This document shows, one piece after another, positions 6,104 through 6,366 of a stretch of DNA of 64,000 bases. Origin of the DNA: Lachnospiraceae bacterium (GTDB lineage: Bacteria; Bacillota; Clostridia; Lachnospirales; Lachnospiraceae); contig CAVLDP010000003.1 of assembly GCA_963661945.1 (NCBI GenBank), positions 61,441 to 125,440 on the forward strand. Direction: 5' to 3'. Positions within the stretch are counted from its first letter, which is position 1. Each line of letters begins with the position of its first letter. Position numbers and translations under genes: made by a program. The notes beneath the pieces are model-generated. The model saw only the letters and a list, made by a program, of their open reading frames with translations, made no database searches and had not been told where the DNA came from.

Positions 6104-6131
6104 TTGCAATTTGTTTGGTATATGCTATACT
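6104..6131 (+). promoter_or_regulatory. Sigma-A type promoter TTGCAA-16 nt-TGcTATACT (extended -10)
   Basis: -35 TTGCAA at 6104-6109. TGc at 6123-6125. TATACT at 6126-6131. It sits 49 nt upstream of the small-ORF ATG. Confidence 0.6.
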
Positions 6132-6140
6132 AACTATAGA

Positions 6141-6158
6141 TGTTAGGTATACCTAACA
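6141..6158. promoter_or_regulatory. Perfect 18-bp palindrome TGTTAGGTA|TACCTAACA in the leader of the small ORF (candidate operator or leader hairpin)
   Basis: Exact reverse-complement symmetry read directly from the sequence. It lies between the -10 element and the SD. Confidence 0.5.
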
Positions 6159-6179
6159 AATAAAAAGGAGGTAATTACG

Positions 6180-6281
6180 ATGATGGAAGTATTAGGAACT
6201 GCCGGGATTAGTGTTGTGGTTGCCGGAGGCGTAGCTGCTACTATGGAAGGCGTAAAGTACATGATTAAGCGTATGTTCTAA
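6180..6281 (+). CDS. 33-aa hydrophobic/basic small peptide MMEVLGTAGISVVVAGGVAATMEGVKYMIKRMF (below the ORF-track cutoff)
   Basis: AAGGAGG at 6165-6171 is 8 nt before ATG 6180. Stop TAA at 6279-6281. It has its own promoter upstream and a terminator downstream. Confidence 0.5.
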   Translation: MMEVLGTAGISVVVAGGVAATMEGVKYMIKRMF

Positions 6282-6327
6282 TCGGACATTCCTTAACGAT
6301 ACTTATAAGACAAGATGAGACGGGTCT

Positions 6328-6366
6328 CATAAAGCATACTTTTATGCTTTATGGGGCTTGTTTTTT
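6328..6366 (+). terminator. Rho-independent terminator after the small ORF
   Basis: Hairpin CATAAAGCATA-CTTT-TATGCTTTATG (6328-6353) is followed by GGGCTTGTTTTTTG. A second overlapping hairpin ATGAGAC-GG-GTCTCAT lies at 6315-6330. Confidence 0.65.

Follow-up and report, generated by a model that had tools for sequence, protein, structure and literature searches.

A candidate species-restricted mini-gene for a predicted single-helix membrane peptide at the 3' end of a signalling operon in a Lachnospiraceae bacterium

Does the interval between a two-component signalling operon and a restriction enzyme gene of a Lachnospiraceae bacterium contain a small gene of its own and, if so, what kind of product would it encode? 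We addressed this question in a window of 64,000 nucleotides (nt) from this bacterium (GenBank assembly GCA_963661945.1, contig CAVLDP010000003.1, positions 61,441 to 125,440 of the forward strand), whose own numbering is used throughout. An earlier note on this DNA had described, at positions 6104-6366, a stand-alone unit encoding a hydrophobic peptide of 33 amino acids (aa), composed of a promoter, a palindrome, a Shine-Dalgarno (SD) sequence, an open reading frame (ORF) and a terminator, and had compared its layout to that of type I toxins. All the listed elements were found at their coordinates, and it is very unlikely that such an ordered array of promoter, palindrome, ribosome-binding site, ORF and terminator arose by chance. 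The ORF is probably a real and translated gene. We propose, tentatively, that this unit (hereafter the mini-gene) could be a genuine species-restricted gene for a single-helix membrane peptide, placed at the 3' end of the operon and acting by helix packing, plausibly on the adjacent histidine kinase.

The ribosome-binding site, AAAGGAGGT (6164-6172, plus strand), lies 8 nt before the ATG, and its pairing to the anti-SD sequence was calculated at -14.0 kcal/mol, the third strongest among 51, in agreement with its previous description as a strong SD sequence. Sites as strong as this one were found in two of 50 window genes and at 0.2% of random positions, and among the starts with an equally strong site the mini-gene was the sole small intergenic ORF. 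The ORF, MMEVLGTAGISVVVAGGVAATMEGVKYMIKRMF (6180-6281, plus strand), consists of 33 codons and a stop codon and has a double ATG start. Using a whole-codon log-odds score, for which 41 long window genes served as the training set, we obtained 0.358 bits per codon for this ORF, near the 0.408 +/- 0.19 of real in-frame 33-codon pieces; its score was reached by 0.1% of the antisense pieces and by not one of the 10,000 off-frame ones, and of the window's 196 ATG ORFs with lengths of 28-45 aa this one ranked first. It had been said that the ORF list misses the unit, but gene callers did call the ORF in four further assemblies belonging to this species (L001, L002, L006 and L007), and it was intact in 5 of 5 assemblies. 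An ATG ORF of 39 aa runs antisense to the peptide ORF (6143-6262, minus strand); its codon score was about -0.03, and it is probably not coding.

Upstream of the ribosome-binding site we identified a σ70-type promoter (6104-6131, plus strand), formed by a TTGCAA -35 hexamer, a 16-nt spacer and an extended -10 element, TGc-TATACT. Its extended -10 character was borne out, but the term consensus was not, because the hexamers agree at 9 of 12 positions, to which the TG before the -10 is added; this is a good promoter that falls short of consensus. Promoter-like sites with 9/12 matches numbered seven in the region 5300-7300, against 5.1 expected by chance, and the TG was present in this one alone. 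No single-nucleotide polymorphism (SNP) was found in 6104-6131 across four other strains. The predicted transcription start would be at about 6138-6139.

The palindrome, TGTTAGGTATACCTAACA (6141-6158, no strand), is a perfect one of 18 bp with 9-nt arms, the sole perfect palindrome with arms of this length in the 64 kb and also the longest of the window. Because about 0.45 such palindromes are expected per 64-kb window, its presence somewhere in the window was unremarkable; it was noteworthy for its location alone, since it is improbable that it should fall within the approximately 40 nt that separate the -10 hexamer from the ribosome-binding site. As RNA, the palindrome was calculated to form a 7-bp hairpin of -7.7 kcal/mol beginning about 3 nt from the predicted start. 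It could thus act as a 5'-terminal mRNA hairpin, as a repressor's operator that overlaps with the transcription start, or in both ways, and we regard these as candidate roles. A third copy of the half-site, TGTTTGGTATA (6112-6122, no strand), was located inside the promoter spacer; it is a repeat of 91% identity (D2) and constitutes the core of a 21-nt arm (6102-6122) that is complementary to 6148-6168 at 81% (I1). There were four matches to the half-site in the window, three of them clustered around the promoter and palindrome of the mini-gene. A regulon having the palindrome half-site in common was considered and rejected, the remaining match, at 37376, being a TGgTATAAT promoter. The repeated half-site admits two compatible readings from the sequence: it could complete an operator made of the start-site palindrome and the spacer half-site, or it could take part in RNA pairing that would confine translation to the promoter-derived isoform.

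The unit is closed by an intrinsic terminator (6318-6369, plus strand), consisting of a 20-pair hairpin (6318-6363) followed by TTTTTT, with a fold of -30.2 kcal/mol (z = -8.2). Two overlapping hairpins and a T-run had been reported here. A hairpin and the T-run were present, but the two hairpins proved to be a perfect 11-bp inner hairpin (6328-6338/6343-6353) contained in a single stem, which a G.U-rich outer part lengthens to 20 pairs. A regulated switch between two hairpins was also considered, and it was rejected because the two-hairpin fold reaches only -11.9 kcal/mol, against -30.2 kcal/mol for the long terminator. On the minus strand the inner hairpin alone was found, with no U-run, and the terminator is predicted to act on the plus strand only.

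A terminator was also looked for between the stop codon of the upstream response regulator gene (6099) and the mini-gene, and none was found. The mini-gene is, therefore, not fully stand-alone: its terminator would also serve as the first terminator of the upstream operon, and the operon transcripts should carry the small ORF. Folding of 6095-6185 gave a predicted long-range structure (6095-6179, plus strand) that would exist in read-through transcripts only, with -24.8 kcal/mol and z = -3.3 (3 of 200 shuffled sequences were equally good). In this fold, GCCUU (6101-6105) pairs with GAGGU of the ribosome-binding site, CGUAG (6095-6099), which contains the regulator stop codon, pairs with UUACG (6175-6179) just 5' of the ATG, and 6109-6122 pairs with 6148-6161. 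In contrast, the transcript predicted to start at about 6138 contained the 7-bp 5' hairpin only and left the ribosome-binding site unpaired. The ribosome-binding site is thus predicted to be masked in operon read-through and open in the promoter-derived transcript; the strains differ too little for covariation to bear on this proposal.

The earlier note had proposed a search for conserved homologues in related genomes, and what we found was a single variant of the same species, with isoleucine instead of methionine at residue 22 (M22I). An exact cluster look-up among about 15 billion predicted proteins gave a cluster of two, the window sequence and the M22I variant; one variant came from 5.8 billion clusters searched by word index with an X-padded query; and phmmer against 1.84 billion representatives returned the same-species M22I variant and nothing more, it being understood that with a 33-aa query only relatives above roughly 65% identity are detectable in databases this large. 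Phages and plasmids gave no match, either by tblastn with the peptide or by blastn with 6100-6950. A degenerate DNA pattern for the C-terminal KYMIKRMF gave 13 chance matches in the metagenome collection and one in the viral collection, none of them in a matching ORF. The peptide had no family match in Pfam, NCBIfam or PADLOC and no paralogue in the window, and Rfam 15 gave nothing at E <= 1 on either strand of 5000-8000. The mini-gene is, on the basis of these searches, an orphan restricted to one Lachnospiraceae species.

Comparison of the strains over 6100-6420 showed that 8 of the 8 non-coding SNPs were in loops or linkers or preserved pairing, and that the only coding one was the conservative M22I change (6245, G>A). 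The sole SNP within the palindrome (6148, T>C) is located in its 4-nt loop or centre, another (6162, A>G) in the linker from the hairpin to the ribosome-binding site, and a third (6284, G>A) just 3' of the stop codon. The two changes in the terminator stem turn an A-U pair into G.U (6338, A>G) and a G.U pair into G-C (6359, T>C), and three more (6381, C>T; 6395, T>G; 6406, T>C) lie downstream of the terminator. SNP density was high in 6282-6410, with six variable sites. Between the window and L006 there were 7 differences in 1-5299 (0.13%) and 24 in 5300-6870 (1.5%); this uneven divergence suggests that recombination occurred, or that constraint was relaxed, beginning with the regulator gene.

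The Gly/Ala-rich, membrane-like core followed by a basic tail that had been recognised in the peptide was confirmed by hydropathy and by structure prediction. The core (residues 4-22) had a 19-residue Kyte-Doolittle mean of 1.82 and was rich in small residues (G6, A8, G9, S11, A15, G16, G17, A19, A20 and G24), whereas the tail (residues 22-33) was amphipathic, with a hydrophobic moment of 0.58 and the basic residues K26, K30 and R31. The net charge is +1 and there is no cysteine. AlphaFold2, run with no alignment, modelled a single continuous helix over residues 3-32 with a predicted local distance difference test score of 87. The peptide is thus predicted to be a single helix with a Gly/Ala-rich core and a basic tail, and by the positive-inside rule this tail would be cytoplasmic. 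Its hydrophobicity, expressed as the unweighted Hessa sum, was within the range computed for the toxins Fst and TisB.

The operon that precedes the mini-gene contains, in this order, genes for an HD-GYP phosphodiesterase (14-526), for a hybrid histidine kinase of 1615 aa with HisKA, HATPase, receiver and Hpt domains (within 480-6099), and for a response regulator of 256 aa that ends at 6099. The kinase has two-component propeller repeats, a weak Y_Y_Y match and about seven predicted membrane segments, some six of which are N-terminal, before the propeller repeats, with one more before HisKA. The sole recognised domain of the regulator is its receiver (residues 134-244); it has no recognised output domain, and its N-terminal 130 residues had no domain match. 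Because an HD-GYP gene precedes the kinase and the regulator, the output of the operon would probably be turnover of cyclic di-GMP rather than transcription. Homologues of the regulator carry the label Lachnospiraceae, and a scan of genome contigs with the regulator gave distant receiver domains only. Through the regulator homologues we reached seven orthologous operons whose gene order could be compared. The order of HD-GYP, kinase and regulator genes was present in L008, L009 and L011 (regulators 57-65% identical) and the kinase-regulator pair in L028 (61%) and L029 (53%), as far as these contigs extend; the contigs of L030 and L031 are too short for the upstream genes. The contig of L008, whose operon is the closest (65%), ends too soon 3' of the regulator to score the mini-gene. 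What follows the regulator was different in each of the other six: a membrane hydrolase gene after a spacer of 223 nt in L009, a DUF4956 gene after 72 nt in L011, another gene after 45 nt in L028, a convergent AraC-type gene in L029, a short-chain dehydrogenase gene after 1 nt in L030, and a spacer of 167 nt with no comparable ORF in L031. The mini-gene therefore lies at a gene-order break and does not behave as a conserved signalling partner, and its placement by the earlier note at the edge of an accessory segment, directly after a two-component module, agrees with this variation 3' of the regulator.

Downstream of the peptide ORF, about 670 nt (6282-6948) contained no credible gene. An ORF of 78 aa (6521-6757) was considered as a partner or regulator of the mini-gene and rejected; it is probably not a gene, because its codon score was close to zero and the 5.8 billion clusters contained no homologue. 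The next gene encodes a SauUSI-like type IV methyl-directed restriction enzyme (6949-9948) with PLD nuclease, helicase and DUF3427 regions (PADLOC mREase_IV, 5.5e-211). Its start is probably the GTG at 6964, which was called in L006 and whose ribosome-binding site (-16.8 kcal/mol) is much stronger than that of the GTG at 6949, the mechanical start of the ORF; ahead of this gene, at 6925-6936, another extended -10 of like form, TGaTATACT, was seen by eye. A NUDIX gene that matched the PADLOC candidate defence model PDC-S07 (3.8e-46) follows, and directly after it, both being within 9957-12466, a gene for a radical SAM protein of 694 aa (10382-12466), on the same strand as the mini-gene and 4 kb downstream of it. 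The latter protein gave weak generic matches, the best being 2.4e-06 to MoaA, weak viperin-like matches (5.5e-06), and values of 0.0037 or worse for maturases of ribosomally synthesised and post-translationally modified peptides (RiPPs). The restriction enzyme, NUDIX and radical SAM genes may form a small defence cluster.

Starting from the elements, their statistics and the species-restricted distribution, we infer a possible course of transcription, translation, membrane topology, partner and effect. The extended -10 promoter would start an mRNA of about 230 nt at around 6138, the first bases of which would fold into the palindrome hairpin. Hairpins at the 5' terminus shield the mRNAs of Firmicutes from decay that depends on the 5' end, as established for leaders of B. 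subtilis. The palindrome, together with the extra half-site of the spacer, could also bind a dimeric repressor. As the ribosome-binding site would be open in the short transcript, synthesis of the peptide from it is proposed to be efficient, while operon read-through would mask the site. Once inserted, the peptide would expose its N-terminus to the outside and keep the basic tail (K26, K30 and R31) inside, and it would act within the membrane through a face of small residues (G6, G9, G16, G17, G24 and several alanines). Helix faces made of small residues favour tight helix-helix packing, and most likely the peptide would pack on the transmembrane helices of a larger protein, or on itself. The adjacent kinase would be the obvious candidate partner, contact being possible because of its approximately seven predicted membrane segments, and the peptide would then be a lineage-specific add-on, not a core component of the signalling system.

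Several observations weigh against this proposal. The mini-gene was absent after the regulator in 6 of the 6 operons that could be scored (L009, L011, L028, L029, L030 and L031; regulators 53-61% identical), and this speaks against its being a core partner of the kinase. Every copy belongs to the same species and is at least 98.5% identical in DNA, so that purifying selection on the peptide is unmeasurable. Synonymous codon choice was not gene-like: its log-likelihood ratio was -1.6, compared with +3.9 +/- 3.0 for native genes (P = 0.04) and a background expectation of -4.6 +/- 3.9. Therefore, the codon signal of the ORF stems from its amino-acid composition, which is rich in Gly, Ala and Val, and the mini-gene may be young or acquired. 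Additionally, the core is marginal for membrane insertion, with an unweighted Hessa sum of +2.5 kcal/mol, and both the choice of partner and the assumption of a non-toxic action are conjectural.

What could the mini-gene be instead? It could encode a type I toxin, that is, a peptide that damages or depolarises the membrane and whose mRNA would be restrained either by an antisense transcript, such as one that would begin near 6391, from the convergent site described below, and run over the 3' untranslated region, or by an RNA from another locus; such a module would stabilise or support the defence genes. The layout agrees with that of such toxins, whose published criteria are a length below 60 aa, the prediction of a transmembrane segment, and a C-terminus that is charged or bulky (PMC6563280): the peptide has 33 aa, a predicted transmembrane segment and the charged, bulky tail KYMIKRMF, and its resemblance to Fst and TisB in hydrophobicity, the apparently very stable ends of its mRNA, its narrow orphan distribution, typical of type I toxins, and its position at a gene-order break beside the type IV restriction enzyme gene and PDC-S07, a candidate defence gene, point in the same direction. 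To this extent the comparison made in the earlier note was sound, but it did not extend to the families, and no convincing antisense RNA was found. No toxin family of Pfam, NCBIfam or PADLOC matched, the window contained no paralogue, and tblastn and blastn found no relatives in phages and plasmids. One convergent promoter-like site, TTGATC-17-CATAAT (6426 to 6398, minus strand), is placed like the promoters of the 3'-overlapping antitoxins of B. subtilis and C. difficile; however, it agrees at 9/12 positions with no TG, which is the level expected by chance, positions near it differ between strains (6381, 6395 and 6406), the minus strand has no proper terminator, and nothing better was seen in 6100-6520, in agreement with the earlier note, which could recognise no convincing antisense promoter by eye. 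Moreover, a strong-looking promoter and an open ribosome-binding site in the promoter-derived mRNA would be dangerous for an unguarded toxin. We consider the type I toxin doubtful. A variant in which a toxin-like guard, recently born or acquired beside the defence cluster, would be controlled by the DNA operator and by isoform-specific masking in place of an antisense RNA seems quite unlikely.

A transcript of about 230 nt, or the 3' end of the operon, could also function as a regulatory RNA or as a mere terminator, the ORF being fortuitous or translated with no consequence. Small RNAs of Firmicutes share this build of 5' hairpin, A-rich linker and strong terminator, the upstream operon needs a terminator anyway, and neither the synonymous codon use nor any homologue speaks for selection on a protein. 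Nevertheless, a perfect 9-nt ribosome-binding site at ideal spacing, followed by a double ATG and 33 gene-like codons, is a combination unique in the window, the ORF was intact in the five assemblies and Rfam contributed no family, and we regard a non-coding element as unlikely. Finally, the peptide could be exported, for instance as a leaderless bacteriocin, as a peptide of the phenol-soluble-modulin type or as a pheromone precursor cleaved behind the double glycine (G16-G17) of a leader, or it could be a substrate of the radical SAM protein. Such roles would agree with the size, with the GG at residues 16-17 and with the radical SAM gene 4 kb downstream on the same strand. However, no C39 peptidase/ABC exporter, immunity gene or Rgg/RRNPP receptor was found nearby, the sequence departs from the double-glycine consensus (S at -7, G at -12 and E at -15), and the peptide has a net charge of only +1 and lacks cysteine. 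As for the radical SAM protein, it had no SPASM or RiPP-maturase match above noise, it follows genes of a defence-type restriction enzyme and a NUDIX protein, and the strong terminator of the mini-gene separates the peptide gene from all of these. We consider export very improbable.

The single-helix membrane peptide that we prefer has parallels among known systems. In E. coli, MgrB and SafA are small membrane proteins that modulate the sensor kinase PhoQ. Surveys of such proteins are available (PMC12648545 and PMC10730256). Like MgrB and SafA, the mini-gene product would be a tiny predicted single-pass membrane protein encoded beside, and co-transcribed with, a membrane-bound sensor kinase, but it has no sequence similarity to them and it was not kept with the kinase in six related species. 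The leaders of aprE and ermC are 5'-terminal stem-loops that stabilise mRNAs of B. subtilis, and the mini-gene resembles them in having a hairpin a few nt from the (here inferred) 5' end and then a strong ribosome-binding site; it departs from them in its perfect DNA palindrome and the third half-site in the promoter, which fit a protein operator equally well. With genes for small RNAs or small ORFs at operon 3' ends it shares an internal promoter and a terminator common with the operon, although it seems to yield a peptide instead of an RNA that acts by base pairing. The type I toxins of Firmicutes (Fst of pAD1 par; BsrG/SR4 and TxpA/RatA of B. subtilis; CD2517.1-RCd8 and relatives of C. difficile; PMC6563280) are likewise small one-helix peptides with a charged, bulky C-terminus, and their genes are similarly unannotated, narrow in distribution, equipped with their own promoter and a very stable terminator, and found at a variable spot beside defence genes. 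The mini-gene differs from them in having no detectable antisense RNA gene, no sequence similarity and an open ribosome-binding site, and in being a single copy outside a prophage or plasmid context.

The mini-gene is new, while its kind, unannotated genes for small membrane proteins, is already known; if made, the peptide would be one more orphan among the many mostly uncharacterised small membrane proteins of bacteria. Its value is local, for the annotation of this genome and as a candidate for small-protein screens, since similar small ORFs are common and no long-standing question is touched. The anatomy of the mini-gene is clean and easily testable: the promoter is isolated, the 5' end has a hairpin or operator, and access to the ribosome-binding site is predicted to depend on the transcript isoform. 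Confinement to a single species together with atypical synonymous codons indicates a possible young gene in the 3' end of an operon. Its importance would grow if the peptide were found to modulate the kinase, or to be toxic and controlled through the operator or the transcript isoform.

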